A DNA stretch of 64,000 bases. Origin: an uncultured Planctomycetota bacterium (GTDB lineage: Bacteria; Planctomycetota; PLA2; JAEUHO01). A program made the position numbers and the translations under genes. The notes beneath the pieces were generated by a model. It did no database searches and was not told the origin of the DNA. It saw only the letters and a program-made list of their open reading frames with translations. Shown piece by piece: positions 4,184 to 49,568 of this stretch; the first letter of the stretch is position 1; every line of letters begins with the position of its first letter. The stretch spans positions 1,600,001-1,664,000 of the forward strand of contig CAVVXN010000005.1 in assembly GCA_963752285.1 (NCBI GenBank). The letters run 5' to 3'.

Positions 4184-4186
4184 TCG

Positions 4187-5311: not shown

Positions 5312-5330
5312 GCGGCGCGGGAGGAGAGCG

Positions 5331-6860: not shown

Positions 6861-6984
6861 CCCCGGCCCGACCCCGGCGCGGCCCCGCGCCGCGCGTCGA
6901 GGCCGACCGTCGCGCCGATCTGGCCGTCGAGGTCGCGATCGCTACACTTTCCCGATCTCGGGTCCCGCCGGCGGAGAACTCTCG

Positions 6985-11764: not shown

Positions 11765-11777
11765 CCGGGCGCGCGCG

Positions 11778-18033: not shown

Positions 18034-18194
18034 GGGAGCTTCGGCTGGGGGCGAGCCCTCCTCCTCGTCGTTGGGCCCGCGTCGAAGTGTAGGGATCCCG
18101 AGACTCCCCCGCAACGTCCCCGCGGCGGGGATCGAAGGGGGGGATTCTGGCGAAATGGACGGTTTGGTACCCTGCCGCACCGCGGGGGGAGGCC

Positions 18195-21100
18195 TTGGAT
18201 CCGAACGACACCAGAACACGGCTGCAAGAGGAGCTGCGCGATCTGAGGGCCCGGGGTCCACGCGTGCGTGCCTCCGAGCTCCTCGACCGCCACCCGGATC
18301 TCCTCCCGGTCTTCCTCGAGTGGCTCGGGGGCGCACGCCAGGCGAGCCCGGTCCACGGGGGAGTCGCGCCGGTCGGCCTTCCCCCGCTGCGCGTCGTGCC
18401 GGGCGACCGCTACGAGTCGTTCTCGGTCGTGGGAAGAGGCGGGCAGGGGATCGTCTACCGAGCCACGGACATCGACCTCCAACGGGACGTCGCGTTCAAG
18501 GCCCTGCGGACCGTGGCCGCCGATCTCCCGAACGGCGCCGTGCCGGGAACTCCCTGGGACCTCCCCGCGCCGACCGGGCCCGGGGACTCGGACCTGGCTC
18601 TCACACGCGAGCGGTTCCTCCAGGAGGCCCTGATCACGGGAGGACTCTCCCACCCGGGGATCGCGCCGCTGTACGAGATCGGTCAGACGCCGCTCGGCGT
18701 TCCGTACTACACGATGCGCTTCATCAAGGGGGAGACGACGCTCCGCACGCGCATGGCCGACCTGGCCGTTGCCGGCGTCGAGGCCCGCCTCGCGTTGCTC
18801 GAGCCCTACCTCAAGGTGTGCGACACGATCGAGTACGCGCACTCCCGAGGCGTCGTGCATCGAGATCTGAAACCGGAGAACGTCGCCATCGGCCGGTACG
18901 GCGAGGTCGTCGTCCTCGACTGGGGACTGGCCGCCATGCTCCCGGAGATCGCGGCGAGCCGCAGTCACTGGCACCAGGCCGTGGAGAAGCTGAAGCGCGG
19001 CCGGGAGAACGTGGAGTCGGGCGTGCTGGGGACGCCCGGGTACATGGCCCCCGAAACGTTCAGCGGCGCGAACGAGACCCCGGGCACCTCGGGCGACGTC
19101 TATGCCCTCGGCACGATCTTGTACGAAATCCTCACCGGGCGGCACCCTCACAGCTATCGGAGCCTGGCCGAGTACGTGGAGCGGGTCACGCGGGAAGACC
19201 CCGCGCCCGCTCGCTCCGTGGACCCCGCCGTCCCCGAGGAGCTGTCTTCCCTCTCAACGCGGGCGCTGGCTCGTCATCCGGAGCGTCGGCCGTCGAGCAT
19301 CGGCGACCTGACGGCGGAGATCCGTGCGTGGCAGTCCCGGACGGCGATGGACCGGGAGGTTGGCGGTCTCCTTCGGGAGGCCCGCACCCTCTTGGACCAC
19401 GCCGAAGGGATGTCGGGCGAGGACCTTCTCCGTGAGGTGGACCGCGCGGCGGCGCCCCTGCACCAGGTGCTCCGTCTCCGCCCCGGGGAAGGGACGGCCC
19501 AGCAGGAGATGCGGCGCGCGTCGGCGCTTCGTGAACGAGCGCAGGCGGAGCACCGTGCGGCCGTGGAGCTGGCGGCGCGCCGAAGCTCCGCGGAGTCGCG
19601 TCGCCGCGCCGTGCGTAGAATCGCGTTCAGCGCGTCGCTGCTCGTCGTGGCCGCGACCGTCGTCGCCGCCCTGTACGCATCCGATCGACGGCGGGACGCC
19701 GAACGCAACGCCGCCCGCGCCGCGAGCGCAGAAGAGCAGGCGCGGACGCGACTGGGGCAGACCCTGGCGCACCTGTCCGTAGCCTACGGCCAGGAGGGTC
19801 GCCGAGCCGCCGCGCGCCTGGCCTCGGCCACGGCGCTGGAGACGCGACCTACACCGGACACCTGGCGCGCCCTGGCCTCGGCGGCGCGCTTCGCCCTTCC
19901 CACGTTCCGCGCCGTGAGCCTGAACGTGCACGTGTTGTCGCTCGCGTTCGACCCGGCGCGGGGCCTCCTGTACGCCGGGTGCGAGGACGGAGACGTGCGC
20001 GTGTGGGATCTCGGCTCCGGCGCCGAGCAGCGGGAGTTCCATGCGCACGACGATCCCGTGACGGCCCTCGCGCTGTCCCGAGACGGTAGGCATCTCTACA
20101 CGGGCGGAGCCGGGCTGATCCGCAAGTGGGACGCCGTGGACGAGAAGGTGCTGGACACCCTGGTCGGGATGCGGGGCGCTGTGCGGCGCATCCTCGTCAC
20201 GGACGGGGAGGAGGTGCTCATCGCGATCGATGGCGGTCCCACGGGGGGCCGTGGGCCGGACGGCGAGGGGAGCGAAGAGGCCGGCGAAGCGCCGACGACG
20301 AGCACGGTGCAGGTGTGGGACCTGAAGGAGCGGGACAAGCCGTGGCACATCGAGGGAGTCGAGGGATTCTCGCCGGGCGCCGTTTGCCTGGACCCGCGCG
20401 CCGGCAGCCTGCTGGTCGGAGCCGAGGGCACGGTGATCGAGTGGTCCCTTTCGGCGCGGCGCCCGATCCGGGCGTTCCACGTGGCCGTCGGCCGAGTCTC
20501 CGACCTGTGGGTCACTGCCGACGGAAGCCTCCTCTTCGTGGCGACGGAGGGCGCGGGGGACGAGCGGTTCCCCGTCGAGATCCGGGACCGCAAGACCTTC
20601 GAGGTCAGGAGCCGGGTCGGGCAGAAGGTGCTCGGCGGGTTCGACCGATTGGCTTTCGACGCCCGCGACCGGGTTCTCTACGCGAGCCGGACGCGCGGGG
20701 GCTGGATCGACGCCTGGAGCCTGCGGGCCGACGAACCCGAGGAACAGCCCGGAAGGCGAGGGAGATCTCCCGTGCTGGTCCTGCCGTCGGTCGCACGCGT
20801 GGTGGCGCGGCACGACGAGGACTCGCTCTGCGTGTACTCCGCTCGCGGCTCGCAGCGCGTTCTCGCGCAGCTTCCCGTCGGCCATGCACACGCCATCCGG
20901 AAGGCGGCCGGATCTCCCGACGGACGCCGCCTGATCACGTGGGACCACTCCGGCGTGCTGCGGACCTGGGAGTGCGAGCCTTGGCAATGCACAGCTCGGA
21001 CGTCGGGTCTGGGGGCCGTCCAGGCCCTGGCGGTCGCGCCCCTGGGGACGGATCGTGCCGCCGTGGCCCAGGCGTCTCGCGTCACCTGGATCGACACGAC

Positions 21101-29358: not shown

Positions 29359-29787
29359 CGGGGACCGGCCGGCGGCCCGGAGCCCGTGAAGGAATGGGCC
29401 GAGGGCCCGAGGCCGAGCGAGAGGGCGCGAGGAGGAGGCGACCCCTCCGTGGGTCGCTGACGACGAGCGACGCCGCATCGCGGCGCCGCAGACGGCCGAA
29501 GCCCCGGACTCGATTCCCGCCCAGGCTCTCAGCCCGCCCCGGCGTCGTGGCCCTCGCGCCGGTCGCCCGGCGACCGCTTGGGCGGCGGCGCGGTCCGCCT
29601 GCCGCGACCCGACCCCGCGAGGTGGCGGAGCCACAGCGCCAGGACGACGAACGCGAGGATCAGGAGCGGGACGAACACGGCGCCCAGTTTCGCGCGGGGG
29701 CCAGGGCGAGGCCCGGCGGGGCGCGGCCCGGCGCCGTCGCGGCGGGTAGAGTCGCGGGCCGAGGACCACGCCACGGGGGTTCGGACC

Positions 29788-32700
29788 ATGGCCGCGGAGG
29801 CGACGAGGGAACCGCAGGAGCCGGCGGAGACCGCGGCGGGGTCCGCACCGCGCGCGCCCGAGGCGGGCGGGACCGTCCGCCTCGACGTCGAGTACGACCC
29901 CTGCGTCAACTACGCCCTCCAACAGAACGCGGTCCCGGTCGTCCGGGGCGTGTGGATCGAGAACCTCTCCGACACGCCGATCGAGGACGTGGAGCTCACG
30001 ATCCGGGCCGAACCGGACCTCGCGTCGCCGGTCGTACGGCGGATCGACCGGATCCCCGGCCATCAGGGCCATCGACTCGCGAGCGTGGACCTCCCCCTCG
30101 GGCCGGCGCGGCTCGTGAACCAGATGGAGCGCGAGGCGGGCGAACTCGTGGTCGAGGTGCGGGCGAAGGGCGAGGTCGTCGCGACGACGCGCCGTCCCCT
30201 CGAGGTCCTCGCGTACGGGGAGTGGGCCGGGACGCGCTCGCTCCCCGAGATCCTCGCGGCCTTCGTGCTCCCGAACCATCCCGAGGTGGCGCGGATCCTC
30301 CTCCTCGCCCGGGAGCACCTGGGACGGGCCACGGGCAGCCCCGCGCTCGACGGGTACCAGTCGCACGACCCCGCGCGCGCCCGCGCGATCCTCGCCGCGA
30401 TCTACGCCGCCGTGTCCGGCCTCGAGATCACGTACGTGGCGCCGCCCGCGAGCTTCGAGCGCGAGGGGCAGAAGGTCCGCACGCCCGACCAGGTCGTCGA
30501 GGGCGGCCTCGGGACGTGTCTGGACCTCGCCCTCCTCGTCGCGGCCGCCCTGGAGCAGGCCGGGCTCTCGCCCCTCGTGGTCCTCTTCGAGGGCCACGCC
30601 CTCCCCGCCGTCTGGCTCGCGGACGACGCGTTCGTGGAGCCGATCGTGGACGACCCCACGCGGATCTCGAAGCGCGTCGCGCTGGGCGTGATCGAGGTCG
30701 TGGAGGCGACGGGCCTCGCGAACCGCCCCCCCGTGCCCTTCGAGGAGGCCGTGGCCCTCGCGCGGCGGCGCCTCGGATCGCCCGGGTCGTTCGCGTACGC
30801 GGTGGACGTCCGCGCGGCGAGGCGCCACAAGATCCGGCCGCTTCCCGTCCGGCTCGCCGACCCGACGTACGAGGCCGCGCCGGAGCTCCGTCCCGTCGTC
30901 CCCGCGCCGGACGCCCGGACGGGCGACGCGCGGTCCACCGCCCCCCCGGCGATCCCGTCGGCGACCGGGACCTCGCCCGGCGAAGGGGTGGAGGCGAACG
31001 CCGCGCCCGGGGGAGCCGCGGCGGAGGCCCTGCCGGTGGCGCCCCTCGTCGGCGCGGCGCGCGTCGAGCGCTGGAAGCGGAAGCTGCTCGACCTGACGCT
31101 TCGGAACCGGCTCCTGAACCACCGCGAGACGAAGACGGTCGTCCCCCTGCTCTGCCCGGACGTCGCGCGCTTCGAGGACCTGCTCTCGGCCGGGGAGACG
31201 TTCACGGTCCACCCGAGGACGCGCGAGCTCGACGGGCAAGATCCGCGCGACCCGGCGCTCTTCGCGAACCGGTCCGGCGAGGACCTCGTCCACTCGTTCC
31301 TCCTCGAGCAGATGGACCAGCGGATCCTCCGCGCGCCGCTCGACGACAAGGACCTCGACCGCCGCCTCGTCGAGATCTCGCGGACCGCGCGCACGAACCT
31401 CGAGGAGGGCGGCGCGAACACGCTCTACCTCGCGATCGGGTTCCTCCGGTGGTTCGAGACCCCGACGAGCACGACGGAGCGGCGCGCTCCGATCCTGCTC
31501 CTCCCGCTGGAGATCTCCCGGTCTTCGATGCTCGAACGGTTCCAATTTCGTCTCGCCGACGACGACCCGCGCATCAACGTAACGCTCCTCCAGAAGCTGA
31601 AGGTCGACTACGGCTTGGAGTCGGAGGGCTTCGACGAGCTCGAGACGGACGACTCGGGTCTCGACGTGCGGAGCATCCTCCAGCGCGTGCGCGCGCTCGT
31701 CCTGGCGCTCGACCGGTGGGACGTCGTCGAGGAGGTCGCGCTCGGGCACTTCTCGTTCACGAAGTACCTGATGTGGCTCGACCTCGAGAAGCGGAGCCAC
31801 GAGCTCGAGGAGAACGCGGTCGTCCGCCACCTGATCGAGTCGCCCACCGACCCGTGGCCGGTCGCGACCGATCTCCCGCGTCCCGAGGAGATCGACGAGC
31901 GCTGGAGCCCCGGATCGACGTTCTGCCCGCTCGACGCCGACAGCTCGCAGCTCTGCGCGGTCCACGCGGCCGCCGACGGCGCCACGTTCGTCCTCTGGGG
32001 ACCGCCGGGGACCGGCAAGTCCCAGACCATCACGAACGTGATCGCGCACGCCGTCGCGACGGGACGCCGCGTCCTCTTCGTATCGGAGAAGATGGCCGCG
32101 CTGAACGTCGTGAAGAAGCGCCTCGAACAGGTGGGGCTCGGGCCCTTCTGCCTCGAGCTCCACTCGAACAAGGCGCAGAAGTCGAAGGTGCTCGCCGAGA
32201 TCCAGGAGGCCCTCCACCTCACAGCGCCGGCGCCGGACGACGGCTGGGACCGGAAGGCGGAGCGGCTCCAGGGCCTCGCGAAGGACCTCGACCGCTACGC
32301 GGAGGTGCTCCACCGCCGCCGTCCGGCAGGGCTGAGCGCGTACCAGGCGATCGCCAGGCTCGTGGGCCTCGGGGACGCGCCCCTCGTCGCCCTCGACCTC
32401 GGCGACGACCCCGAGACGTTCGACGCGAAGCGCCTGGAGCAGCTCCGGGATCAGGTCCAGGCCTTTCGAACGGCGCTCGTCGAGGTGGCGCCGCCCGCCG
32501 AGCATCCCTGGCGCGGCGCGACGCTCGACGCCTGGGCGCCCGCGCTCACCGCGGACGCCGTGGCGCGGTTCCGCGAGGTGGCGCGTCGCGCGAGCGACCT
32601 CGACGCGGCGCTCGGGGCCCTCGCAACGCCCCTCGCCGTCGAGGGGAAGGCGCTCTCCCGCGCCGCGCTCCTGGCGACCGCCGACGTCGCGCGCCTCCTC

Positions 32701-35700
32701 CTCGACGCGCCGCCGGTCACGCGCGCGATCCTCGAGGCGTCCGACGCCGACGCGCTTCGCGCCGACGTGGACGCCTGGGCCGCGGCGGGGCGCGAGGAGC
32801 AGGCACTTTCCGCGGCGCTCCTCGAACGTTTCTCCCTGGGCGTGCTCGAGCTGGACCTCGACCGGCTTCGCGCACGGCTCGACCTCGCGCGGCGGTCGGG
32901 CTGGCCGGTCTCCTGGTTCCGGGCGCGGGCGCCGCGGCGCGCCCTCCGCGCGGTCGCGAAGGACCGTCTCGGCCGGACGGACGCGCTGTTGTCGGACGTG
33001 GACCGCGCGCTCCGCGTCCGGTCCCTCCGCCGGCTCCTCGACGGCGCCGCGGCGCGGGGGTCGGCGTGGTTCGGGAGTCAGTGGCAAGGCGCCGACACGT
33101 CGTGGGACGCGCTCGTTTCGGCGCGAGACTTCGCGCTCGCGCTCCAGAGGGCGACGCTCAGCGCGGCCGACGGCGACGTGCGCCGCCTCGCGTCGGTCCG
33201 GGAGCGCGCGGCGGCGCTCGCGACGGAGGGACAGGACCTCCTCTCGTCGGACGGCCCCCTCCGCGCCGCCCTTGAGGCCGCGGTCGGGGCGCACGACGCG
33301 CTCGCGGGGGCGATGGAGGCCGCGAAGGCGCTCCTCGTCCTCGACGAGGACGCGGCGTGGGGCGGGTCCGCCGAGTCGGGCGCGCTCGCGCGGATCGTGG
33401 CTCGCGCGGGCGCGGCCGCCGGGCGGCCCGAGGCGCTCCGCCCGTGGTGCACCTGGCGCCGTGTCGGCAACGAGGCCCAGAGGAGCGGTCTCGCTCCGCT
33501 CCTGGCGGCGGTCGAGGAGGGTGGGGTCCGGCCGGCCGCGGTCGAGCGCGCGTTCGAGCGCTCCTTCACCGAGTGGTGGATCGGCCGGGTCTTCCAGGCG
33601 GAGCCCCTGCTCCGGGCGTTCGACGGCCGCCAGCAGCAGGACCTCGTCCGCCGCTTCGGCGACCTGGACGTCGGCGTGACCTCGGAGAGCGGCGACGTGA
33701 TCCGGGCGCGCGTGGGCGCGCGGCTCCCGCGCGGGCAGCGCGAGATCTCGCCGAGCAGCACGTCGGAGATGGGCATCGTGCGGCGCGAGCTGATGAAGCA
33801 GCGCCGGCACATGCCGATCCGCCGCCTGCTCGAACGCGCGCCGAACGTCGTGTGCCGCCTCAAGCCCTGCCTGCTGATGAGCCCGCTCTCGGTCGCGCAG
33901 TACCTCTCGACCGACTTCCCGCGGTTCGACCTCGTCGTGTTCGACGAGGCCTCGCAGATCCCGACGCACGACGCGATCGGAGCGATCGCGCGCGGCGAGG
34001 CGCTGGTCGTGGTCGGCGACCCCAAGCAGCTCCCCCCCACCGCGTTCTTCGAGCGGACGGACGACGAGGAGGTGGACGAGGACGACGTCGAGGACCTCGA
34101 GAGCATCCTCGACGAGCTCATGGGCGCGCGGCTCCCGAGCCTGCGCCTCGGCTGGCACTACCGGAGCCGCCACGAGAGCCTGATCGCCTTCAGCAACCAC
34201 CAGTACTACGAGAACCGCCTCCTCACGTTCCCCTCCGCGCTCGCCACGGCGCCCGACCTCGGCGTCTCGCTGGTGAACGTCGAGGGCGTCTACGACCGCG
34301 GCGGGTCCCGCGCGAACCTCGCCGAGGCGAAGGCGGTGGTCGCGGAGATCGTGGCGCGTCTCACGGACCCGGAGCGCGCGCGCTACACGATCGGCGTCGT
34401 CACCTTCAGTCTCGCGCAGCAGACGCTCGTCGAAGACCTCCTCGACCAGGCGCGGCGCGAGAACCCGGCCCTCGAGCCGTATTTCACCGGAGGCGTCGAG
34501 GAGCCCGTGTTCGTGAAGAACCTGGAGAACGTCCAGGGCGACGAGCGCGACGTGATCCTCTTCTCGATCTGCTACGGCGCGGACGCGTCGGGCCGGGTCG
34601 CGCTCAACTTCGGGCCGCTGAACCGCGACGGCGGCGAGCGGCGATTGAACGTCGCGATCACCCGAGCGCGCCGCGAGGTGAAGGTCTACGCCTCGATCCG
34701 CGCCGACCAGATCGACCTCGCGCGGACCCGCGCGGTCGGGATGCGACACCTGAAGGAGTTCCTCGACTACGCCGCGCGCGGACCGGCGGCGCTCGGCCAG
34801 GCGCTCGTCGTGGCGGGCGACGCGGAGGCGGAGTCGCCCCTCGAGGAGGACGTGAAGCGCGCGATCGAGGCCGCCGGCTTCGAGGTCGTGTCGCAGGTCG
34901 GGTGCTCGGGCTACCGGATCGACCTCGGCGTGAAGGACCCGGACGCGCCGGGGCGCTTCCTCCTCGGGGTCGAGTGCGACGGCGCCATGTACCACAGCGC
35001 GAAGACCGCGCGCGACCGCGACCGGCTCCGGGCGAGCGTGCTGCGCGGTCTCGGCTGGGTGCTCCACCGCGTGTGGTCCACGGACTGGTGGCAGGACCCG
35101 AAGCGCGAGACGAAGCGCGTCCTCGACCGTCTCCAGGAGCTCCGCCGGGCGCCCCGAGGGCCCCCCCCGCCGCCCGTGCCCCCGCGCCCGCGCCGCCGCC
35201 GCCCCCGCCCACGCCCACGGCGCGGGCCGGGGACGCTGGCGAAGACGTCCTGCCCGACGGGGCCCGGGCCGACGCGCCCGCGGCGTCCGGTCCTCGCGGG
35301 GGCTCCGCGGACGCGGCCGGGCCCCTCGTTCCCGGCGCGACGAGGTACGAGGCGCACGAGCCGAACGTGTCCTCGAGCGATCCCGAGGTCTTCTACCTGC
35401 CCCGCACGACGTCTCACGTTCGACGCGTGCTCGAGCAGGTGTTGCGGCAGGAGGCGCCCATCTCCCTCTCGCTCCTCGGGCGGCGCGTGGCGACGGCCTG
35501 GGGGCTCAAGCGCCTCACGAACCGAGCGAAGGAGCGCGTCGAGGAGGTGCTCGTCCGCGTGCCCCACCGCACGACCGCCGCATCCTGGGAGACGTTCGTG
35601 TGGCGCGACGACCAGGACCCGTCGGGCTATCGGGGCGTTCGCGTGCCGGGGCCGAAGGAGGACGACCGTCGGGAGCCCGAAGAGATCTCGCCCCAGGAGA

Positions 35701-35945
35701 TCGCGAACGCCGCGGCGTTGATCCTCCGCGACCAGATCAGCATGCCGCCCGACGACCTGTCGCGCGAGACCGCGCGGATGCTCGGATTCCAGCGCATGGG
35801 CTCGGCGGTGAAGCCCGTGATGGAGGCGGGGCTCTCGACGCTCGTTCGGGACGGCCGCGCGGTCCAGGACGGCGAAGCCCTCGTCGCGAACGACGACCCC
35901 CCGGCGACCGACGGCCCCGGACGGGATCTTGCGCCGCCGACGTAG
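29788..35945 (+). CDS. DUF4011 - SF1 helicase - Vsr/MTES-like nuclease - DUF3320 protein (Hhe-like defence protein), frameshifted near 35160
   Basis: WKRKLLDLTLRNRLLN (DUF4011), GPPGTGKSQTI, FDEASQ, GDPKQLPP, HYRS, ENVQGDERD, RRLNVAITRAR, IDLGV..GVECDG..YHS..RDRDRLR; the C-terminal EAPI...EISPQEI region is in another frame after C8 at 35161-35168. Confidence 0.88.
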
Positions 35946-37505: not shown

Positions 37506-38819
37506 TCATCCGGCGACGGCCCCGTACACGAGGCCGGTCACGGTGGCCATCACGACGACGAGAAGCGAAAAGACCGTGGTCTTCCGCCAGCCCATCACCT
37601 TCCCGATGACGAGAAGGTTGGGGAGCGAGAGCGCGGGCCCGGCGAGGAGGAGGGCAAGGGCCGGTCCCTCCGCCATCCCATGGTGGCGCAGCGCCTCGAC
37701 GATCGGGATCTCGGTCAGGGTCGCGAAGTAGAAGAGCGCCCCGACCACGGACGCCGTGAGGTTCGAGAACAGGCCGTTGTCCCCGACCCACGACCCGATC
37801 CCCTGGTCGGGGAGCAGGGCCGAGAGGAACCCCACCACGAACACGCCCCCGAAGAGCAGGGGGACCAAAAGCTTCGCGAACCCCCACGTGTTCGCCATCC
37901 ACTCGCGGCGCTCGTCCCCGTCCATCCAGAACCGCGTCATGAGCAGGACCGCGAGGCCCATGAGGCCCGCGAGGTACCACCGCATGTGCCACACACCCAT
38001 CACCCAGCCGCGGGAGGTCTCGATCGTGCCGATTTCGTCCTTTGCGATCGTCAGCCGCTCCCCCGCGGCGAGGTCGCCCGAGCGCTCCGCGAGCTGGACC
38101 GTGACGTCGCCCGCAGTCTCCTGCAGGACGACGCCCGCGACCTCGCGACCGTCGGTGAGGTGGATTCGCGCGTCGCCGGGGTTGTACCAGTCGCTGAACA
38201 CGAGGAACGCGACCATCGCGGCGAGGAGCAACGTGGTCTTCCGAAGCGACCTCGTCGGGGCCGCGCCCTCCGCGATCGGCACGGGGGTGGTACCGAGGCG
38301 GGCCGCCTCTTCGCGCCGGAACACGAACGCCATGGCGAGCCCGATCACGATGGCGAACCCGATCGCGCCGACCGCGCGGGCGACGCCGAGGTCCACGCCC
38401 AGCACACGGGCGGTCAGGAAGACGGCCAACACGTTGATCGCCGGTCCGGAGTAGAGGAACGCGCTGGCCGGGCCGAGTCCGGCGCCGAGGCGGTAGATGC
38501 CTGCGAACATGGGCAGGACGCTGCACGAGCAGACGGCGAGGATCCCGCCCGAGACCGCGGCCACCGGGTACGCGACGCGCTTCTTCGAGCGAGGGCCGAG
38601 GTGCTTCATCACGGCGGAGGGCGTCAGGAAGGTCGTGATCGCGCCCGCGATGAAGATCGCGGGGACGACGCACGCCAGCGTGTGGTTCCGCGCGTACCAC
38701 TGGAGGAGCCGGAACGCCTCCTGGATCGCGTTCCGGACCCGCGGGTCCGAGAGGGGCAGCGCGTACGCGACCCCGAAGACGCCCAGCATCGCAAGCAGGA
38801 TCCGGAGCTCTCGGCGCAT
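37506..38819 (-). CDS. arsP: ArsP/DUF318 permease
   Basis: AVCSCSVLPMFAG, FLYSGPAIN, YFATLTEIP, LLAGPALSLP motifs. Confidence 0.88.
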   Translation of the reverse strand: MRRELRILLAMLGVFGVAYALPLSDPRVRNAIQEAFRLLQWYARNHTLACVVPAIFIAGAITTFLTPSAVMKHLGPRSKKRVAYPVAAVSGGILAVCSCSVLPMFAGIYRLGAGLGPASAFLYSGPAINVLAVFLTARVLGVDLGVARAVGAIGFAIVIGLAMAFVFRREEAARLGTTPVPIAEGAAPTRSLRKTTLLLAAMVAFLVFSDWYNPGDARIHLTDGREVAGVVLQETAGDVTVQLAERSGDLAAGERLTIAKDEIGTIETSRGWVMGVWHMRWYLAGLMGLAVLLMTRFWMDGDERREWMANTWGFAKLLVPLLFGGVFVVGFLSALLPDQGIGSWVGDNGLFSNLTASVVGALFYFATLTEIPIVEALRHHGMAEGPALALLLAGPALSLPNLLVIGKVMGWRKTTVFSLLVVVMATVTGLVYGAVAG

Positions 38820-38850
38820 GGGTGGATTCCGAGGGGGAGGAGGGGGCGAC

Positions 38851-39177
38851 TCAGCAGCGACAGCTCGGAGACGCTGCGGAGGCCCGCTTGGGGTCGAGCA
38901 CCCCCTCGATGCACTCGAAGAACCCGAGCACACAGGGGGTGAGGAGCCGGTACACCTGCTGCTGGCCACGTCGCTCCGAGGCGACGATGCCCGCGTGCTT
39001 GAGCGTCGCGAGGTGCCGCGAGACCGTGGAGATGTCGTCGCCGACGATGGCCGTCAGGTCGCAGACGCAGCGGTCCCCGCGGGCCAGCTCCTCCACGAGG
39101 CAGAGACGGGTCGGGTGCGCCATCGCCTTGATGACGGTGGCCCGGGCTTCGAGACGGCGGCGCGTGCGGACGTTCAT
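38851..39177 (-). CDS. arsR: ArsR/SmtB family metalloregulator
   Basis: KAMAHPTRL, CVCDL, TVSRHLATLK, C-terminal Cys residues. Confidence 0.92.
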   Translation of the reverse strand: MNVRTRRRLEARATVIKAMAHPTRLCLVEELARGDRCVCDLTAIVGDDISTVSRHLATLKHAGIVASERRGQQQVYRLLTPCVLGFFECIEGVLDPKRASAASPSCRC

Positions 39178-39193
39178 GGTGGGCTCCGGACCT

Positions 39194-39226
39194 AAGTATT
39201 GCGTATTTGGCCAAACTTACAAATAA
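39194..39226 (-). promoter_or_regulatory. Putative arsR promoter/operator
   Basis: AT-rich patch with inverted repeat TATTTG-N10-CAAATA (contains TTTGGCCAAA) overlapping TTGTAA/AATACT-like hexamers just upstream of arsR. Confidence 0.6.
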
Positions 39227-39998: not shown

Positions 39999-40560
39999 GG
40001 CCCACCGCGAAGGTCGCGCAGTCGCACGACAGAGCGCACGAGCCCGGCATCTTGCAGCGCCGTGAGTACGTCCTCGATCGTACACGGCGGGTTCCCAAGC
40101 GCCGCCGCCTGCTCCCTCAGGACCTGCGCGACGAGAGGCGGGCCTCTTCGATGCGCTCCAGGATGAAGTCGTCCGGGTGCTGTGCCTCGACGCCGTGCGC
40201 AGCCAGTACGGCCGACGGGAAGTCCTTCACGTTCGATGTCACGATGATCTGTGCACGCCCTCGGATCACCGCCGCGAGAACATGACGGTCGTCCGCGTCG
40301 GGGAGTTCCACGTCCTGGATGAGATCCTCGAAGTCGGTGATCTCCCAGTCGGGAATCGCCGCCTTCATCAGCTCGCGGGTTCGGTCGAGCGCGTCCGGCG
40401 CGAGGTCCGGACGTCGAGCGAGGATGCTCGCGAAGCACTCTTCCATGATCCGCTCCGACCACCGGGCGCGCACCATGCCCGCGAGATCGAGCCGGATCAA
40501 CAGGTCGCGCAGCGGCGCAGGATGAAGGACGCATGCGTCGAGGACCACGACGAGCGGCAC
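39995..40560 (-). CDS. PIN-domain toxin (VapC/PIN_3-like), frameshifted near 40140
   Basis: VVLDACVL, LPDADDRHVLAA, IVTSNVKDFP, HPDDF; C-terminus LREQAAALGNPP is in the adjacent frame. Confidence 0.85.
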
Positions 40561-40572
40561 GCGGACGCCCGA

Positions 40573-41025
40573 TCAGTACCCGAGGTCGTGCTTCTGCGCT
40601 TCGGCCGCCAGCTCGTCCAGCACGGCCTTGCGGCGCTTCTCCTCTTCCATGCGGAACCGCAGCACGTCGTCGGCTCGCACGCGGCGATGGGTGCCCACCT
40701 TACGAGACGGGATCTTCCCCTCCTCCAGGAGTTGGACCAGGTGCGGACGCGACACATTCAGCAGATCCGCGGCCTGCTGCGTGGTGAGCTCCGCGTGGAT
40801 CGGAACCAGGGTCACGCCGTTCCCGTTCGCCATCTGGCCGAGGATGGCCATGAGCATCTGGAAGGCCTCGAGCGGCACGTCCACGGTGATGGGCTTGTCC
40901 ACTCCCTCCGGCCGTAGGCGCACGATGCGCCCCCGCGACCGCGGGAGATCGGACAGGGCGCGCAGGGCCTCCCGCGCGCGCTCCGTCAGGGCCTTCGAGG
41001 GCATCTTGAGTTCGAGCGCGCTCAT
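40573..41025 (-). CDS. Excisionase-like HTH_17 antitoxin
   Basis: ELTTQQAADLLNVSRPHLVQLLEEGKIP..KVGTHRRV; immediately upstream of the PIN gene. Confidence 0.9.
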   Translation of the reverse strand: MSALELKMPSKALTERAREALRALSDLPRSRGRIVRLRPEGVDKPITVDVPLEAFQMLMAILGQMANGNGVTLVPIHAELTTQQAADLLNVSRPHLVQLLEEGKIPSRKVGTHRRVRADDVLRFRMEEEKRRKAVLDELAAEAQKHDLGY

Positions 41026-41046
41026 GGGAGGGAGTCTACCACCAAA

Positions 41047-41091
41047 CGAAGCATCCGAAACAGACGAAACACCCGAAACAGACGAAACAGG
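41047..41091. repeat. Five 9-bp direct repeats CGAAACAnn upstream of the TA operon
   Basis: cgaagcatc-cgaaacaga-cgaaacacc-cgaaacaga-cgaaacagg. Confidence 0.85.
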
Positions 41092-41565
41092 TGCACACAG
41101 CCGGGCTCCCCCACGCGGGTCCCTGGCCCCCCGCGGCTCGGCGCCGGAGCCGGCCAATCAATGAACGTTCAGGTTCCGGGAACTGCCCCTGCGATTGCAG
41201 AACCACGGAGAGGGTGACCGGTTCTGCAAGCGAACGGGCGCTCGAGCCCGCCCCGCTCGGGCGCTGCCCCGCCCGTCGATCCCCCCTGTCCACTCCGCGT
41301 CCGCGCGCCGGCGGCTGGGTGGCCGAAGAAACCGTCCGGCGGCCCGACGGGAGCCGCACGAGGTCGCGACGGCCCCCGACCTCCCGGGCAGAGGTATCCG
41401 CCCACGGAGCAGGTCGGAGACGACCAGTGGACGGGCCCCCGGCATGATCCCGTCCGGGTCGGCGCCCCGCGGCCGAAGTGCGTCCACCCCGTCCAATCCG
41501 AGTCCAACGCATCGATGACCTCTCCGCCAGCCTCCGTCGCTCGACGATCCGCCCCTCATCGGTGC

Positions 41566-44043: not shown

Positions 44044-45336
44044 TCAGCGCGCGCGCGACGCCGAGAGCGCGCGGTGCGCGATGTCGGTGCGGAACATCGC
44101 CCCCTCGAAGTCGATGCGCTGGACGCCCTCGTAGGCCCGGTCGCGCGCCTCGCGGAGGCCCGGGCCCCGGCCGGTGACGCAGAGCACCCGCCCGCCGGCG
44201 GTCACGACCCGGTCGCCCGCGCGGCGCGTCCCGGCGTGGAACACCTCGACCCCCTCCAGGCCCGCGGCCTCCTCGAGGCCCCGGATCGGCTTCCCGGCCT
44301 GGTACGCCCCCGGGTACCCCTGCGAGGCGATCACCACCCCCACGCACGGTTCCGGGTCCACGTCGAGGCCCTCGATCGACGCGAGCCTCCCCTCGGCCGC
44401 CGCGTAGAGGACCTCGAACAGGTCCGTCTCGAGGCGCGGCAGCACCACCTGGGCCTCGGGGTCGCCGAAGCGCACGTTGAACTCGAGCACGCGCGGTCCG
44501 CCCTTCGTGACCATGAGGCCCGCGTAGAGCACGCCGGCGAAGGGAGCGCCCTCCATCTTCATCCCGTGAATCGTGGGCACGAGGACCGTACGGATTACGC
44601 GGTCCATCAGGTCGCCCTCGACGACGGGCGCCGGGCTGTACGCGCCCATGCCGCCGGTGTTCGGCCCCGCATCCCCGTCGAGCGCGCGCTTGTGGTCCTG
44701 CGAGGAGGGCAGGACGAGGATCGTGTCGCCGTCGGTGATGGCGTGGATCGAGGCTTCCTCCCCGCGGAGGTACTCCTCCACCACCACCCGCGCGCCCGCG
44801 TCGCCGAACCGGCGCGCCGACATCGACTCGTCGAGCGCCGCGAGCGCCTGGTGCAGATCCTCGCAGATCGCGACGCCTTTCCCGGCCGCGAGCCCGTCGG
44901 CTTTCACCACGAGCGGGAAGACCTCGCTCTGGCGCACGTACGCGCGCGCCTCGTCGGCGTCGGTGAACGAACGCCACGCCGCGGTGGGCACGTTGTTCCT
45001 CACCATCATCTGCTTCGCGAACGCCTTGCTGCCCTCGAGGCGCGCGGCCGCGCGGGTCGGCCCGAAGATGACGAGGCCGTCGTCGCGGAACAGGTCCACG
45101 ATGCCCTGGACGAGGGGCGCCTCGGGGCCCACGACCGTCAGGTCCACCTTCTCCTCGCGGGCCCAGCGCCGGAGGCCCTCGACGTCGCTCGTGAGCAGGT
45201 CCGCGCGACATCGCGCCACCGCCTCCATGCCGCCGTTCCCCGGCGCGGCGAGGACCTCGTCGACGCGGGGGCTCTTCGCGAGCGTCGCGGCAAGCGCGTG
45301 CTCGCGGCCCCCGCCCCCCACGACCAGCACCTTCAT
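44044..45336 (-). CDS. purD: Phosphoribosylamine-glycine ligase
   Basis: GGGGREHAL, GPEAPL, LEGSKAFAK, KADGLAAGKGV, QDHKR, NTGGMGAYSP, EFNVRFGDPE. Confidence 0.98.
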   Translation of the reverse strand: MKVLVVGGGGREHALAATLAKSPRVDEVLAAPGNGGMEAVARCRADLLTSDVEGLRRWAREEKVDLTVVGPEAPLVQGIVDLFRDDGLVIFGPTRAAARLEGSKAFAKQMMVRNNVPTAAWRSFTDADEARAYVRQSEVFPLVVKADGLAAGKGVAICEDLHQALAALDESMSARRFGDAGARVVVEEYLRGEEASIHAITDGDTILVLPSSQDHKRALDGDAGPNTGGMGAYSPAPVVEGDLMDRVIRTVLVPTIHGMKMEGAPFAGVLYAGLMVTKGGPRVLEFNVRFGDPEAQVVLPRLETDLFEVLYAAAEGRLASIEGLDVDPEPCVGVVIASQGYPGAYQAGKPIRGLEEAAGLEGVEVFHAGTRRAGDRVVTAGGRVLCVTGRGPGLREARDRAYEGVQRIDFEGAMFRTDIAHRALSASRAR

Positions 45337-45673
45337 GACGGCTCCTCGGGGCGATGTCCGGCGGCGCTCTCGTACCACGCGGGGGCCCGGCCGGCGAACG
45401 GATCGGGCGGGGCCCCTCCACCGTGCGCTCGACGATCCGTGACCCGTACGTGACATCCGAGGCCCGCGAGAGGCCCCCGAGAGCGCGCTCCGGGCGTCTG
45501 CGGGGCCGTTCCAGGGTCCGTCCCCCCCCGGTGTCACCCGATACGTAGCGATGGGCCCTCGCTCCTTGGAGGGGAGTGCCGTCCGCGGTACCCTCGCCCG
45601 GGGTCAGGCCCCAAGGAGGCATGTCTAGACCCAGCGCCCCCGGCGAATGGGTCGATTGGGAGGTTCTCGATCC

Positions 45674-45880
45674 ATGAGGAAGTTCGTCGTCCTGCTGGCG
45701 CTGGTCGTCGCGGTCGGCACGATGGTTGGCTGCTCCAGCCCGTGCAACCCCTGCCAGCCCTGTCAGCCCTGTGTCGCCGCTCCCGTCTACCAGAGCCCGT
45801 GCTGCCCCGCTCCGAGCGGTGCGGTCGATGGCGCCTGGGGGATGGCCGCGCCGATGGCGCCCGCCGGTGGGGGCTACTAG
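45674..45880 (+). CDS. Small Cys/Pro-rich lipoprotein 1 (68 aa)
   Basis: GGAGG RBS; MRKFVVLLALVVAVGTMVG-CSSPCNPCQPCQPC...CC...GGGY; strong terminator downstream. Confidence 0.8.
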   Translation: MRKFVVLLALVVAVGTMVGCSSPCNPCQPCQPCVAAPVYQSPCCPAPSGAVDGAWGMAAPMAPAGGGY

Positions 45881-45945
45881 GACTCGTACCGCTACGAGCA
45901 CGTAGGGTCGTCCCGCGCGACGAGTGCGGGAGGACCCGGACATCC

Positions 45946-45986
45946 GAGACGCACGGCGATCGAGATCGCCGTGCGTTTCTCTTTTT
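45946..45986 (+). terminator. Rho-independent terminator
   Basis: Stem GACGCACGGCGAT-cgag-ATCGCCGTGCGTT followed by a T-rich tail. Confidence 0.8.
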
Positions 45987-46174
45987 CGGCCGCATCTCGT
46001 GTTCGTGGGCGGGGATCACGGCGCCACACGGGCCCGGCCCGACGTAGCGCCGCGCGCGGGGCACGCGCCGCCACCCGCCGGCCCGCGCCGGTCGTGGACC
46101 GCGCGCTTGGCAGCCGCCGCGCGACCTCCTACGATCGCGCGGCGACGCGCGGTTCGCGTCGGGAGGACGAAGGC

Positions 46175-46441
46175 ATGCGGCCGCGAACGATCCTCGGCGT
46201 GGTGCTCGCGCTCCTCTTCGTCGCCGGCGCCCTGGGCCTCTCCGGCTGCTGCGTCGAGCCGGCGGACTGTCTCTGTCCGGGCGACCCGTGCCAGGAGGGT
46301 GCGGCGCCGTGCGACCCGTGTCGGAACGGCGGCGAGAAGCGGTTCTGGACGCCGATCCACCGCGTGTCCTGTTGCTGGTGGCAGCCCGTACCGTGCCCGT
46401 GCGCGGACCCCGCCCCACTCCCCTCGGCCTGCGCGCCGTAG
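46175..46441 (+). CDS. Small Cys-rich lipoprotein 2 (88 aa, 12 Cys; OmcA-like pattern)
   Basis: GGAGG RBS; signal ending LSG-CC, then VEPADCLCPGDPCQ..PCDPC..CCWW..CPC..C. Confidence 0.75.
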   Translation: MRPRTILGVVLALLFVAGALGLSGCCVEPADCLCPGDPCQEGAAPCDPCRNGGEKRFWTPIHRVSCCWWQPVPCPCADPAPLPSACAP

Positions 46442-46599
46442 CGGCACCGAATTCGCCGGGGACACGCGTCGTGACCCACGGGTGACCCGGGAGGGCATCC
46501 TGGGGGCGTACCGGGACTCGTGCTCGCGGCGTCCCCGGGGACCGTGGCCGTCGTCCCGTTCAACCGGGGCCGGGGCCCTCGACGTCGGGACGGAGGACC

Positions 46600-46761
46600 A
46601 TGAAGAAGCTGACCCTCTGGCTGCTTGCGGCCGCTCTCCTGGGGCTCGGGGCCGCCTGCAGCTCCCCCTGCAACACCCCCAATCCCTGCAACACACCCAA
46701 CCCCTGCAACACGCCGAACCCCTGCAACACCCCGAATCCGTGCAACCCCTGCGGGCGCTAG
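46600..46761 (+). CDS. Small Cys-rich lipoprotein 3 (53 aa; not in ORF track)
   Basis: GGAGGACC-ATG; MKKLTLWLLAAALLGLGAA-CSSP(CNTPNP)4CNPCGR; repeat units differ only at synonymous positions. Confidence 0.85.
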   Translation: MKKLTLWLLAAALLGLGAACSSPCNTPNPCNTPNPCNTPNPCNTPNPCNPCGR

Positions 46762-46950
46762 GCCCCCGCGGAGCGCGTAGCCTCGTCTGCTTGTGGTCAG
46801 GAGGAGGATCGGCGGTCCGGGATCCAGGTCTTGGAGAACGGTCCCGCTCGGCCTATTCTCTTGGCTCGGAGGTTGGGCGCCGCCTTCAGGCGTCGGTCTG
46901 CAGACGTCACGGCCGGGCCCATGTACGTTCATCCTAGGAGGTACATCCCC

Positions 46951-47238
46951 ATGCTTCGCAAGCTCGTGATCGTGGCCGCGCTGGTCGGCTGCGTCGGCTT
47001 GGTGGCCTGCTCGTCGCCGTGCAGTCCGTGTAACCAGCCGAACCCCTGCAACAACCCGTGCAGCAGTCCCTGCAACCAGCCGAACCCCTGCAACACCTGC
47101 AGCCCCTGCAACCAGCCGAACCCGTGCAACCAGCCGAACCCCTGCGCGTCGCCGTGCGCCACCCCGTGCGCGCCGGCTCCGTGCGCCCCGCCGCCCTGCG
47201 CGCCGCCCCCGGCGCCCTGCGCGGCTCCCGGCTACTAG
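46951..47238 (+). CDS. Small Cys/Pro-rich lipoprotein 4 (95 aa)
   Basis: [33 protein letters not shown], four CNQPNP units, CAPPP tail, ends PGY; 16 Cys in the mature part. Confidence 0.85.
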
Positions 47239-47263: not shown

Positions 47264-47293
47264 GGGAACCGCCCGGACCCGGGCGGTTCTCTT
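47264..47293 (+). terminator. Putative terminator hairpin
   Basis: GAACCGCCCG-gacc-CGGGCGGTTC followed by TCTT. Confidence 0.6.
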
Positions 47294-47457
47294 CCCCAGG
47301 GAAGGTCGTGGTCGAGGGCACCACGGCCTTCCCTTCGCTTTGCGTGGGCGCGCGGACGTCGATCGCGTCACGCGCGTTCGTCCGCGGCGCCGGGCCTCCG
47401 ACGCGCGAGGGCCCGCGACGCCGCAGCGTCCGTGAACGGGCGCGCGCGGGCGGAAGT

Positions 47458-47532
47458 TGGTCGGGGAGATGGGATTCGAACCCACGACTGGCAGCTCCCA
47501 AAGCTGCCCCTCTACCACTGAGGTACTCCCCG
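47458..47532 (-). tRNA. tRNA-Pro(TGG)
   Basis: CGGGGAG acceptor, anticodon arm GCAGC-TTTGGGA-GCTGC, GGTTCGAATCC, 3' ACCA. Confidence 0.95.
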
Positions 47533-47645: not shown

Positions 47646-49406
47646 CTACCCGCCGGTGGTCGGGCGGTCGGGCGTGCTGCCCGGCTTCGGTCCCGCCGCG
47701 GGACGAGGCGGCGGCTTGGGAGGCGTGGGCGCCGGTCCGTGTCCGCCCTTCCCGTTGGGCTTCTTCGCCGTCGCCTCTTCGAGGACCTCTACGTCCACGT
47801 CGAAAGTGTAGAGCCGCTGGCGTTCGAGCAGAAGCTCCCACGGCGTGCCGCCGTAGCGGGACCGGAGCCGCATGCGCCTCAGCCACAGCTCGGCGAGCGC
47901 GAGGTTTCGCTCGCGGTCGTCGAGGTCCCGCGCCTCGGGCCGCCGCTCGAACCCCTCGGCGATCAGGCGGGGAACGAGCCGCGCTCGCCGGTAGGTGACG
48001 TGGAGCGGCTTGATGCGGCGGAGCGCGGCGACGCGCTCGAGCCAGTGGAAGCGGACCTGCTGGAGCAGGGTGCCGAGCAGCTGGAAGTCGGCCTCGACGC
48101 GTTCGGAGAGCGGGTCCTGACGATCGGAGGGCGTCCGGGCGCGGCCGTCCACCTCGGCCCACCACTGGAGGGCCTGGTTCACGCGCTCGAGCCGGGCGGT
48201 GGCGTGGGCGATCGCCCGGCGCACGTCGTCCATCTCCTCGTACCAGACGGTCAGCGGCTGGAGCGAGCGCACGGGTCGCTGCGGGCGGAGACCGAGGCCG
48301 CCGCCCACCATCTCGAGCGAGCCGAGCGTCTGGAGCACGGGGCACGCCTCGTCCGCCAGATGCTCCCAGATCCGCACGATCACGCGCGCGCGCGCGTCCT
48401 TGTCGAGGTCCTTCAGGACGCGCGCGCGGGGGCGCAGGTCGGGCGCGAAGCGCGCAAGTCGCCCCGGGTCGTACACGGGCGACGCCTGCCTCTTCGCAGC
48501 CGAGCCGGTCGCGGAGAAGTCGGTGACGAAGTAGCGTCCGCCGGTGCTGAACGCGAGCGACGCGGGCGCCCAGTAGCCGAATCCGGACGGCACCGGGTAG
48601 CGCGGCGGGCGCTGCCACAGGAACTCGAGCTGCGCGAGGTCGAGCTCCCAACCGTACGGGACCAGGCCGAGCGCGACGTCGCCGTCGTAGAAGAGCGAGT
48701 CGTGATCGCCCGAGCCCGGCTCCGGTTCGAAGCGCTCGACGAGTCCGAGGGCGGGCACGTTCCTCGGCACGAACGTCTCCTGCCACGCCCGCTCGAACCC
48801 CGCCTCGGGCGCGATCGCGTAGAACGCGACGCCCCCGTCGAGGAGCGCCTCCCGTGTCGCCTCGACGTCGTCCTCGGCGTCGCCCCCGTCTGCCGTCACG
48901 AGGCAGATCGCGAGGGGACCGCGGGTGCGCCGGAGCTCGGCCGCGGCGTCGCGCGTGGCGCGGAGCAGGTTCTTCGTGCCGGGCACGGGGATCGCCGCCA
49001 GGGCCTCGAGGGCGACCCGGGCCCGAGCGGGGTCGGGATCCGGGCGGAGCCGGTCCGCGCCGCAGCCGAGCACCCCGATGGCGAGCCCCGGAGGGCCCTC
49101 CGCCGCGACGCTCTCGATCGCGGCCGCGAGCTGCTTCAGGCGCGGAACGAGCGAGGGCGTCGGGTCGATCACGAGCATCAGCGCGCCGGCGCCGGCCTCG
49201 GGCCGCGCCTCGGCGCGGAGCGCGAGGTCCCGCGCCACGAACCGGACCGCGTCCCGGAAGTCGCGCCCGCGCTCGTACACCTCGGCCGGTGTGCGTGCCT
49301 CCGTGGCGACGCCGCCCTCGGCGCCCGGAGGTGGGGTGAGCCCCGCGAGGAGGAGCGCCGCCGCGAGGGCGAAGGACGGGCGGAGGAGGAGCCGGGGCCG
49401 CGGCAC
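47646..49406 (-). CDS. Secreted vWA-like protein (planctomycete-type)
   Basis: Signal peptide; MIDAS-like VIDPTPS, LVTADGGD, VPSGFGYWAPASLAFSTGGRYF, RYGGTPWE, Pro-rich tail. Confidence 0.7.
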   Translation of the reverse strand: MPRPRLLLRPSFALAAALLLAGLTPPPGAEGGVATEARTPAEVYERGRDFRDAVRFVARDLALRAEARPEAGAGALMLVIDPTPSLVPRLKQLAAAIESVAAEGPPGLAIGVLGCGADRLRPDPDPARARVALEALAAIPVPGTKNLLRATRDAAAELRRTRGPLAICLVTADGGDAEDDVEATREALLDGGVAFYAIAPEAGFERAWQETFVPRNVPALGLVERFEPEPGSGDHDSLFYDGDVALGLVPYGWELDLAQLEFLWQRPPRYPVPSGFGYWAPASLAFSTGGRYFVTDFSATGSAAKRQASPVYDPGRLARFAPDLRPRARVLKDLDKDARARVIVRIWEHLADEACPVLQTLGSLEMVGGGLGLRPQRPVRSLQPLTVWYEEMDDVRRAIAHATARLERVNQALQWWAEVDGRARTPSDRQDPLSERVEADFQLLGTLLQQVRFHWLERVAALRRIKPLHVTYRRARLVPRLIAEGFERRPEARDLDDRERNLALAELWLRRMRLRSRYGGTPWELLLERQRLYTFDVDVEVLEEATAKKPNGKGGHGPAPTPPKPPPRPAAGPKPGSTPDRPTTGG

Positions 49407-49568
49407 GGTCCCTCACTCTACCCGCGGGGCGCCGAGCCGCGGGGGCCGCGAGCCCGGCCCTCGGCGCTCGATCCGTCTCCGAGGCGCGACCCGGACGGGC
49501 GGCCCGGGCCCGATACGATCTCGGGTCGAGCGGCGCGTTCCTCTCGATGCGCGCCCGGAAGGAGACCG

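Follow-up and report, generated by a model that had tools for sequence, protein, structure and literature searches.

Four conserved genes for tiny Cys/Pro-rich predicted lipoproteins in uncultured Planctomycetota: possible cross-linked components of the envelope

In a 64,000-nucleotide stretch of DNA from an uncultured Planctomycetota bacterium (the whole stretch analyzed here, hereafter the window), four short open reading frames (ORFs), orf1 to orf4, lie between purD and a tRNA-Pro gene and encode tiny predicted lipoproteins rich in cysteine and proline. Comparison of three genomes revealed that the four ORFs are real, conserved genes under purifying selection centred on Cys. Judging from the signals around them, they are probably separately expressed, and profile searches place the four predicted lipoproteins in no described family. 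We tentatively propose, with somewhat less than even confidence, that orf1–orf4 are lipoproteins of the envelope which have no globular fold and are cross-linked by disulfides between molecules. What the planctomycete envelope is made of has long been debated, and these conserved, probably abundant Cys/Pro/Asn lipoproteins would be concrete candidates for envelope cross-linking in an uncultured lineage. The peptides are short enough for chemical synthesis, which would permit tests of disulfide polymerization or metal binding.

Conservation and coding strand

An earlier note on this DNA had described four co-oriented short genes between purD and tRNA-Pro, and the ORF list, the GARS domains and the tRNA scans place them there as follows.

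45674-45880, plus strand: orf1, 68 amino acids
46175-46441, plus strand: orf2, 88 amino acids
46600-46761, plus strand: orf3, 53 amino acids
46951-47238, plus strand: orf4, 95 amino acids
~44044-45339, minus strand: purD, upstream of the cluster, with GARS_N/A/C domains
47458-47532, minus strand: tRNA-Pro(tgg), downstream of the cluster

Scanning genomes with the alignment of orf1 yielded two loci, L001 and L002, both in metagenome-assembled genomes (MAGs) of uncultured Planctomycetota bacteria. In each of them the cluster is complete, with its position and gene order unchanged, so that the purD–tRNA-Pro synteny, which the earlier note had suggested checking, is kept in two other Planctomycetota MAGs. 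The conserved order runs from a tadA-like deaminase through genes for a Fur-family regulator and an uncharacterized secreted protein to purD, and then to the small genes on the opposite strand, followed by tRNA-Pro, a PpiC-type isomerase and tRNA-Arg. The purD gene is 75% (L001) and 68% (L002) identical to the window copy, and the three genomes therefore represent three different species. In all of them the Fur-family regulator, nearest to Fur proper at a score below cut-off, is found 2.4 kb upstream of the cluster. The small genes number four in L001 and five in L002; the fifth, at L002 10489-10653, encodes a Cys-rich lipoprotein of 54 amino acids between orf1 and orf2 that occurs in L002 only and is near-identical to P0015 of the representative library.

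The ratio of nonsynonymous to synonymous substitution rates (dN/dS, Nei-Gojobori) is below 1 in all 12 orthologue pairs, with values of 0.14-0.28 for orf1, 0.35-0.66 for orf2, 0.20-0.48 for orf3 and 0.14-0.54 for orf4. Cys columns are preferentially kept: across the three genomes 7/7 Cys columns are invariant in orf1, 8/12 in orf2 and 11/16 in orf4, against 28/42, 14/52 and 26/60 of the other mature columns, respectively. The conservation of Cys in relatives, another check proposed in the earlier note, is thus seen across the three genomes and likewise in the orf1 relatives described below. The orthologues in L001 and L002 share 46-48% identity with orf2 and 70-76% with orf4, and the number of CNxPNP units in orf3 varies from four in the window to six in L001 and five in L002.

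The G+C content of the window is 73%, and long ORFs occur in every frame. The G+C content at third codon positions (GC3) in the proposed frames is 0.87, 0.90, 0.89 and 0.93 for orf1 to orf4, and in a sliding frame plot the high-GC phase starts and stops exactly at the ORF borders, with a phase change between orf2 and orf3. Eight matches to the DNA pattern for C-N-x-P-N-P-C were counted in the window, where 100 shuffles predict 0.00. Furthermore, a six-frame scan of the 64 kb for ORFs with a lipobox and at least 12% Cys returned only orf1–orf4 and one alternative start of orf1.

Some of these signals might stem from non-coding tandem repeats of 18 nucleotides, or from minus-strand genes for GFGWLQ-type repeats, in place of orf1–orf4, an explanation we find barely credible. 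Tandem arrays of 18 nucleotides are located at 46665-46746 (orf3) and 47068-47145. On the minus strand, the ORFs 46560-46745 and 46929-47162 are open, encode GFGWLQ-type repeats and have third codon positions in common with orf3 and orf4; a comparable GFGWLQ-type antisense ORF lies in L002 at 11572-11808. The four repeat units of orf3 show 16 pairwise differences, all at the third codon position and 0 at positions 1 and 2, and the sets compared (16, 6, 34, 4 and 16 pairwise differences) contain none at positions 1 and 2. Because the antisense ORFs share third positions, GC3 and synonymous variation fit both strands and cannot decide between them at orf3 and orf4, and gene callers could choose the antisense ORFs, which copy the GC3 pattern, by mistake. 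The plus strand is settled by the conserved gene architecture, by codon preference and by the closed antisense frame of orf1. A Shine–Dalgarno (SD) sequence, the ATG, a signal peptide with lipobox and the stop codon are all kept on the plus strand in three genomes. The codon preference scores are 0.46 for sense orf3 and 0.67 for sense orf4 compared with 0.01 and 0.18 for the antisense frames, the reference genes scoring 0.73 (standard deviation 0.29). A longer antisense ORF, 46129-46932 (267 amino acids), crosses the phase switch and therefore cannot be one gene. The plus-strand terminators and the similar signal peptides in 22/49 profile matches, both described below, also argue for orf1–orf4 as genes.

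Protein anatomy

To assess the lipoprotein signal claimed for each gene, we applied a lipobox rule modelled on PROSITE PS51257, which asks for K/R among residues 1-7, then an uncharged hydrophobic stretch of six residues, and a lipobox with its Cys at positions 15-35. The rule recognizes 13/13 cluster genes of the window, L001 and L002. The lipoboxes in the window are MVGC (orf1), LSGC (orf2), GAAC (orf3) and LVAC (orf4), position -3 being less canonical in MVGC and GAAC; for orf3 the Pfam family LPAM_1 gave a weak match (E 1, below cut-off).

The mature peptides of the four window genes contain 14-21% Cys and 20-33% Pro. As the earlier note had stated, orf1, orf3 and orf4 share the mature start C-S-S-P-C, and orf1 and orf4 end in GY. 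In orf1, the predicted lipidated Cys is residue 20, and the mature part of 49 residues consists of CSSPCNPCQPCQPC, followed by a conserved non-repeat core (VAAPVYQSPCCPAPSG.VDG.WG) and the final GY. Its family is characterized by short C-x-x-C repeats, this strongly conserved core and usually a terminal GY. In orf2, a second Cys directly follows the lipobox LSGC, and the non-repetitive mature part of 64 residues has 12 Cys, with two vicinal CC pairs and a CCWW motif that is kept as CC(W/L)W in the orthologues; vicinal CC pairs are found in orf1 as well.

The mature part of orf3 (34 residues) reads CSSP + (CNTPNP)x4 + CNPCGR. That of orf4 (76 residues, 16 Cys, 33% Pro, no charged residue, APGY at the end) has four CNQPNP units interspersed with C-x-P-C and C-A-P-P-P stretches, and both arrays agree with the repeats named earlier. 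Together, the two mature peptides contain 21% Cys, 29-33% Pro, 14-26% Asn and 0-1 charged residues, and no aromatic residue occurs in their repeat parts. The tripeptide NPC is present five times in orf3, five times in orf4, once in orf1 and 0 times in orf2. From 82 C-x5-C units of 29 tiny lipoproteins, we derived a hexapeptide unit of C1, N2 (74%), Q3 (57%), P4 (95%), N5 (94%) and P6 (70%), in which N5-P6-C1 is the most conserved part.

Comparison of the orf1 family with the orf3/orf4 family by hhalign gave a probability of 98% over 32 columns, covering the signal peptide and the first Cys-Pro motif. The two families are thus likely paralogous, as the earlier note had supposed for the cluster, the match being short, mostly signal peptide, and no proof of common descent.

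The same note had considered precursors of ribosomally synthesized and post-translationally modified peptides (RiPPs) with modified Cys, to which secreted signalling or antimicrobial peptides may be added. The products are indeed small, Cys-rich and repetitive, with several paralogues in tandem. Their N-terminus is, by contrast, a lipoprotein signal and not a RiPP leader. The flanks in L001 and L002 hold tadA, Fur, purD, tRNAs and the PpiC isomerase, and housekeeping genes make up the neighbourhood common to all three genomes. Radical SAM, YcaO, lanthipeptide and DUF692 families are absent from the 40 window ORFs scanned, in line with the earlier remark that the window encodes no modifying enzyme, though one might be encoded in another part of the genome. 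Accordingly, the RiPP alternative is weakened, and we consider it very improbable.

Structure prediction by AlphaFold2 gave a mean pLDDT (predicted local distance difference test) of 46 for orf4 (28-row alignment) and 51 for orf1 (6 rows). Both models are confident only in the signal-peptide helix, with the mature parts below ~50. Beyond the lipidated residue, the number of Cys is odd in 9/13 proteins and varies between orthologues. These data bear on the possibility that the peptides are defined rigid stalks or rulers, in which hexapeptides would pair into a small disulfide-stapled solenoid or a polyproline-type rod, with the task of spanning a fixed distance or of offering the orf1 VDG.WG...GY segment to a partner, like the Lpp/LpoB stalks, with no need of intermolecular cross-links. 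Such a stalk would suit the strict six-residue period with its fixed Cys, Pro and Asn positions, and the variation in repeat number between orthologues is what one expects of a spacer. A conserved Trp/Tyr-containing tail follows the repeats in the orf1 relatives and in P0002, P0025 and P0042, three proteins from the searches described below. Moreover, beetle antifreeze protein, with Cys at each sixth residue, is a disulfide-stapled beta-helix. Against this, AlphaFold2 finds no fold for orf1 or orf4, no significant sequence match was found in the PDB, the odd Cys counts leave unpaired Cys, and two Pro per six residues are unfavourable for beta structure. We therefore hold a defined stalk to be quite improbable.

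Relatives and the repeat unit

Word-based protein searches of 5.8 billion clusters yielded few relatives. orf4 found four small metagenomic proteins (P0001-P0004) and no self match, orf1 its exact self match and four relatives at 57-75% identity, and orf2 its exact self match only. The earlier note had expected gene callers to miss these genes; this is borne out for orf4, and not for orf1 and orf2, which are present as exact copies in the protein collection. The gene class is thus partly missed by routine annotation, with orf4 lacking an entry among the 5.8 billion clusters and an antisense frame that mimics its coding signal. In the ESM Atlas, orf2 and orf4 gave leads below 0.9 only, belonging to small 'Lipoprotein family protein' clusters in which Planctomycetota is the commonest phylum.

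A profile of 11 orf3/orf4-type proteins was then searched against 1.84 billion representatives at E <= 1e-3, and it matched 49 proteins, 7 of them at E <= 1e-10. By a sorting rule of our own, 22 of the 49 are tiny Cys-rich lipoproteins; in three of these the lipobox lies behind an N-terminal extension, and one of the three has the other repeat type. A further 23, likewise by our own rule, are without a lipobox and carry Cys every six residues in N-P-C repeats. The remaining four are P0013, P0025, P0047 and P0055. P0025 is probably a family member just below the Cys threshold, and P0013, P0047 and P0055 were set aside as apparently unrelated, comprising a wrong-frame-like repeat protein and two Cys-poor lipoproteins.

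The orf3/orf4-type lipoproteins and the non-lipobox group both have Cys after Asn-Pro at a period of about six residues (N5 94% and P6 70% in the former). The latter group differs in having no lipobox, in its unit, C-A-A-K-N-P (N5 94% and P6 97% in 119 units), and often in a cytochrome c domain. Among 16 non-lipobox proteins scanned for domains, eight have a SoxA/TsdA-type cytochrome c domain (seven of the eight reach the Pfam gathering score, which P0057 narrowly misses), one a YHS domain, two DUF5666 (weak matches, below cut-off) and one DUF6789, with four having none. P0018, P0026, P0027, P0040, P0043, P0049, P0051 and P0057 are secreted proteins in which the SoxA/TsdA-type domain is flanked by N-P-C repeats on both sides, and in P0022 N-P-C hexapeptide repeats are joined to a YHS (seleno)protein domain. 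We found no description of either architecture in the literature searched. Profile–profile comparison of the tiny lipoproteins with the small N-P-C repeat proteins by hhalign gave 98% (E 2.7e-13) over 62 columns with N-P-C in register, a similarity that is of low complexity and may be convergent. The N-P-C unit would thereby link the tiny lipoproteins to uncharacterized periplasmic redox proteins.

No described family accounts for the cluster. Pfam and NCBIfam searches with the four peptides gave nothing above cut-off, Pfam at E <= 10 returning only the weak LPAM_1 match of orf3, and 28 relatives together with the orf1/orf2 orthologues have no Pfam match at gathering score. A sequence search of the PDB with three profiles gave nothing significant, its best match (E 0.024) being a scorpion toxin judged to be chance. 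The motif strings were not found in the literature searched, nor were small Cys lipoproteins of Planctomycetota like these, and general literature searches on Cys-rich lipoproteins and metallothioneins returned nothing resembling the orf1–orf4 family. The four lipoproteins therefore appear to stand outside all characterized families, as the earlier note had required of its proposal.

In a different function, the lipoproteins would be lipid-anchored thiol ligands. Their Cys, reduced or cycling, would bind Cu(I), Zn, Cd, Hg or sulfane sulfur, as a metallothionein-like periplasmic sink, a chaperone or a swinging-arm carrier. We regard this, the strongest of the alternatives, as doubtful, though with some real weight. 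It would agree with a Cys content of 13-24%, with the many C-x-P-C and C-x-x-C pairs and the vicinal CC of orf1 and orf2, and with repeat parts of orf3/orf4 free of aromatics. The N-P-C repeats in 23/49 profile matches, some beside SoxA/TsdA-type cytochrome c or YHS domains, the profile–profile match to those proteins and the Fur-family regulator kept upstream point the same way. Conversely, no metal transporter, resistance or sulfur-oxidation gene adjoins the cluster in the three genomes, and neither the four peptides nor their 28 relatives match a metallothionein family. Within the repeat unit, conservation of Asn and Pro equals that of Cys, and a pure thiolate ligand needs neither, while the likeness to the N-P-C proteins is possibly convergent. 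Exported Cys are normally oxidized, and the Cu/Ag-binding proteins known so far from the periplasm rely on Met and His, not on Cys.

Possible function in the envelope

In the cross-linking model, which we tentatively favour, orf1–orf4 would be exported by Sec, acylated on the lipobox Cys and relieved of their signal peptides. Planctomycetes possess Lnt and LolCDE and make lipoproteins, according to one report (PMC8567305). The resulting peptides of 34-76 residues would hang from the membrane into the periplasm as abundant structural components of the envelope. Having no apparent hydrophobic core and being nearly uncharged, their mature parts would be stiffened by Pro, with the units (C-N-x-P-N-P in orf3/orf4) placing a Cys every 3-6 residues. 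In the periplasm, oxidation would convert these numerous Cys, frequently present in odd number, to disulfides, largely between molecules; rigid stalks or a cross-linked layer of lipid-anchored peptides would result. The short conserved aromatic core of orf1 and of orf2 might add a specific contact.

A structural rather than globular or catalytic role is suggested by the low pLDDT of orf1 and orf4, the 0-1 charged residues of orf3 and orf4 and the variable repeat number. Intermolecular rather than fixed intramolecular disulfides are preferred because the count of free Cys is odd and not conserved, yet Cys columns are preferentially kept. Moreover, we prefer cross-linking to metal binding in view of Asn and Pro being conserved like Cys, the uncharged repeats, the housekeeping neighbourhood in three species and the structural precedents discussed below.

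Several observations weigh against this proposal. The family is rare, with 4 matches for orf4, 4 non-self matches for orf1 and 0 for orf2 among the 5.8 billion clusters. The low pLDDT may simply reflect the shallow alignments (6 and 28 rows). No Dsb gene is present among the 40 window ORFs scanned, and Pfam scans of the four peptides and their relatives found no sequence relationship to OmcA, YTV proteins or Lpp. Finally, among the weaker profile matches N-P-C repeats are accompanied by SoxA/TsdA-type cytochrome c and YHS domains, redox or metal contexts which fit thiol ligands better than a cross-linked layer, and a Fur-family regulator lies upstream in all three genomes.

The structural precedents are analogies. 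According to one report, the chlamydial OmcA is a very small, high-Cys lipoprotein of a bacterium of the Planctomycetota–Verrucomicrobiota–Chlamydiota (PVC) group, taken to stabilize the envelope with other Cys-rich proteins (PMC2811131). The four products resemble it as tiny Cys-rich lipoproteins of the PVC group and differ in that OmcA has no C-N-x-P-N-P repeats and that no OmcB-like partner is known for them, no search for one having gone beyond the 64 kb. The link to OmcA drawn in the earlier note is retained as an analogy, since no OmcA-family match was found in Pfam at E <= 10. N-P-C hexapeptide repeats are covered by no curated family, and the only account of them that the literature searches turned up concerns CdeC. 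CdeC of C. difficile is a Cys-rich exosporium morphogenetic protein with repeated N-P-C that multimerizes and shows redox-sensitive self-assembly (PMC7677010). Compared by description only, it shares N-P-C repetition and Cys-richness with the cluster; it differs as a Gram-positive spore protein of ~42 kDa that is neither a lipoprotein nor Sec/signal peptidase II-exported.

For planctomycetes themselves, early work described protein-dominated walls, and Cys-rich YTV proteins were later found in wall preparations; two reports give these proteins as restricted to Planctomycetia, as class or order (PMC8567305, PMC12673574). They are Cys-rich envelope proteins of the phylum to which orf1–orf4 belong. 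The tripeptide YTV is, however, absent from the four translations, no Pfam match to the family was found, and the descriptions of YTV proteins do not present them as tiny lipoproteins. Profile tests thus gave no membership in the OmcA, YTV or metallothionein families.

Two further systems are comparable in size. Braun lipoprotein Lpp is a tiny, abundant, separately transcribed and structural protein, which forms a Cys-free coiled coil and is linked to peptidoglycan through its C-terminal Lys. The cluster resembles it in encoding tiny, separately transcribed putative envelope lipoproteins; in contrast, orf1 and orf4 have no predicted helix in the mature part, and a conserved terminal Lys and a family match are lacking. 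Bacterial metallothioneins of the SmtA/BmtA type are small, Cys-rich proteins with few aromatics and C-x-x-C spacing, cytoplasmic and devoid of a signal peptide. They share with the four peptides the small size, high Cys, few aromatics and C-x-x-C spacing; the peptides differ in their lipoprotein signals, the lack of a family match and Asn/Pro conserved like Cys.

A broader version of the cross-linking model may also be put forward, which we consider unlikely. In this version, the C-N-x-P-N-P/N-P-C hexapeptide would be a widespread, undescribed extracytoplasmic 'cysteine comb' stiffened by Pro. In this uncultured planctomycete lineage its four or five lipid-anchored versions would polymerize via disulfides into a proteinaceous wall layer, a route to the protein-rich envelope of planctomycetes independent of, and different from, the YTV proteins of Planctomycetia. 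In other settings the module would provide periplasmic SoxA-type cytochromes and YHS proteins with a Cys arm.

Expression signals

The following elements accompany the genes.

45946-45989, plus strand: intrinsic terminator 3' of orf1, with a hairpin of 15 pairs and then TCTTTTT (terminator scan)
46107-46135, plus strand: sigma-70-like promoter candidate for orf2, TTGGCA, 17 nucleotides, TACGAT (promoter scan)
46831-46950, plus strand: conserved region 5' of orf4 (three-genome alignment)
47266-47297, plus strand: G+C-rich hairpin after orf4, ten pairs, then TCTTCCCC (read from the sequence)

Each ATG is preceded at 3-10 nucleotides by an SD-like sequence, GGGAGG, GGGAGG, CGGAGG and AGGAGG for orf1, orf2, orf3 and orf4, respectively, that of orf1 being 10 nucleotides away; every gene thus has the GGAGG-type ribosome-binding site of its own that had been reported. 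The terminator hairpin of orf1 is retained in L001 with altered stem bases. Upstream of orf2, the promoter scan found one candidate against 0.1 expected, a consensus match only, and its TACGAT recurs 5' of orf2 in L001 and L002. The region upstream of orf4 contains a promoter candidate of TTGGAG (46831-46836), 17 nucleotides and TATTCT (46854-46859), followed by a leader of ~90 nucleotides ending in AGGAGG. Its counterparts at L001 11260-11394 and L002 11505-11638 conform to TTGGAG/TTGGCA, a 17-nucleotide spacer and TAYNNT, and the leaders of all three genomes contain an invariant GGAGGTTGGGC block and the SD sequence. The hairpin after orf4 is terminator-like but its T tract is weak, and it is absent from the terminator-scan list; a hairpin followed by TCTCTCTTTG is seen at the equivalent place in L001. 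Taken together, the strong SD sites and the genes' own promoter and terminator signals would fit high expression.

A structured RNA in the orf4 leader was considered and is not supported, its fold being no better than that of shuffles (z -0.67) and 1/24 predicted pairs covarying. Rfam searches of the region and of the whole window returned tRNAs only.

Other features of the window

Between tRNA-Pro and the PpiC gene, the window carries a minus-strand ORF of 588 amino acids (47646-49412, GC3 0.93) without a Pfam or NCBIfam family. No tblastn counterpart was found in L001 or L002, where PpiC adjoins the tRNA, and the ORF may be an insertion beside the tRNA gene. A 98-nucleotide tRNA-Thr(cgt) reported by ARAGORN on the minus strand at 2148-2245 is probably a false call; no Rfam tRNA matches there at gathering score, and it lies inside the high-GC3 ORF 1665-3962.

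On the plus strand, genes for a Rieske protein, for cytochrome b and for two c-type multihaem cytochromes with paired CXXCH, NapC/NirT and MtrC-like domains follow one another at 3701-8436 and may form a module of unusual type for respiration or extracellular electron transfer. The minus-strand segments 37506-39216 and 40117-41157 hold a regulator of the ArsR type together with a permease of the ArsP type, and a toxin–antitoxin-like pair of a PIN-domain protein and its HTH_17 partner. Two giant genes lie on the plus strand at 18093-23279 and 29461-35721, one encoding a 1728-residue Ser/Thr kinase with many WD40 repeats and the other a 2086-residue DUF4011/AAA_11/AAA_12 helicase with an MTES_1575 nuclease domain.

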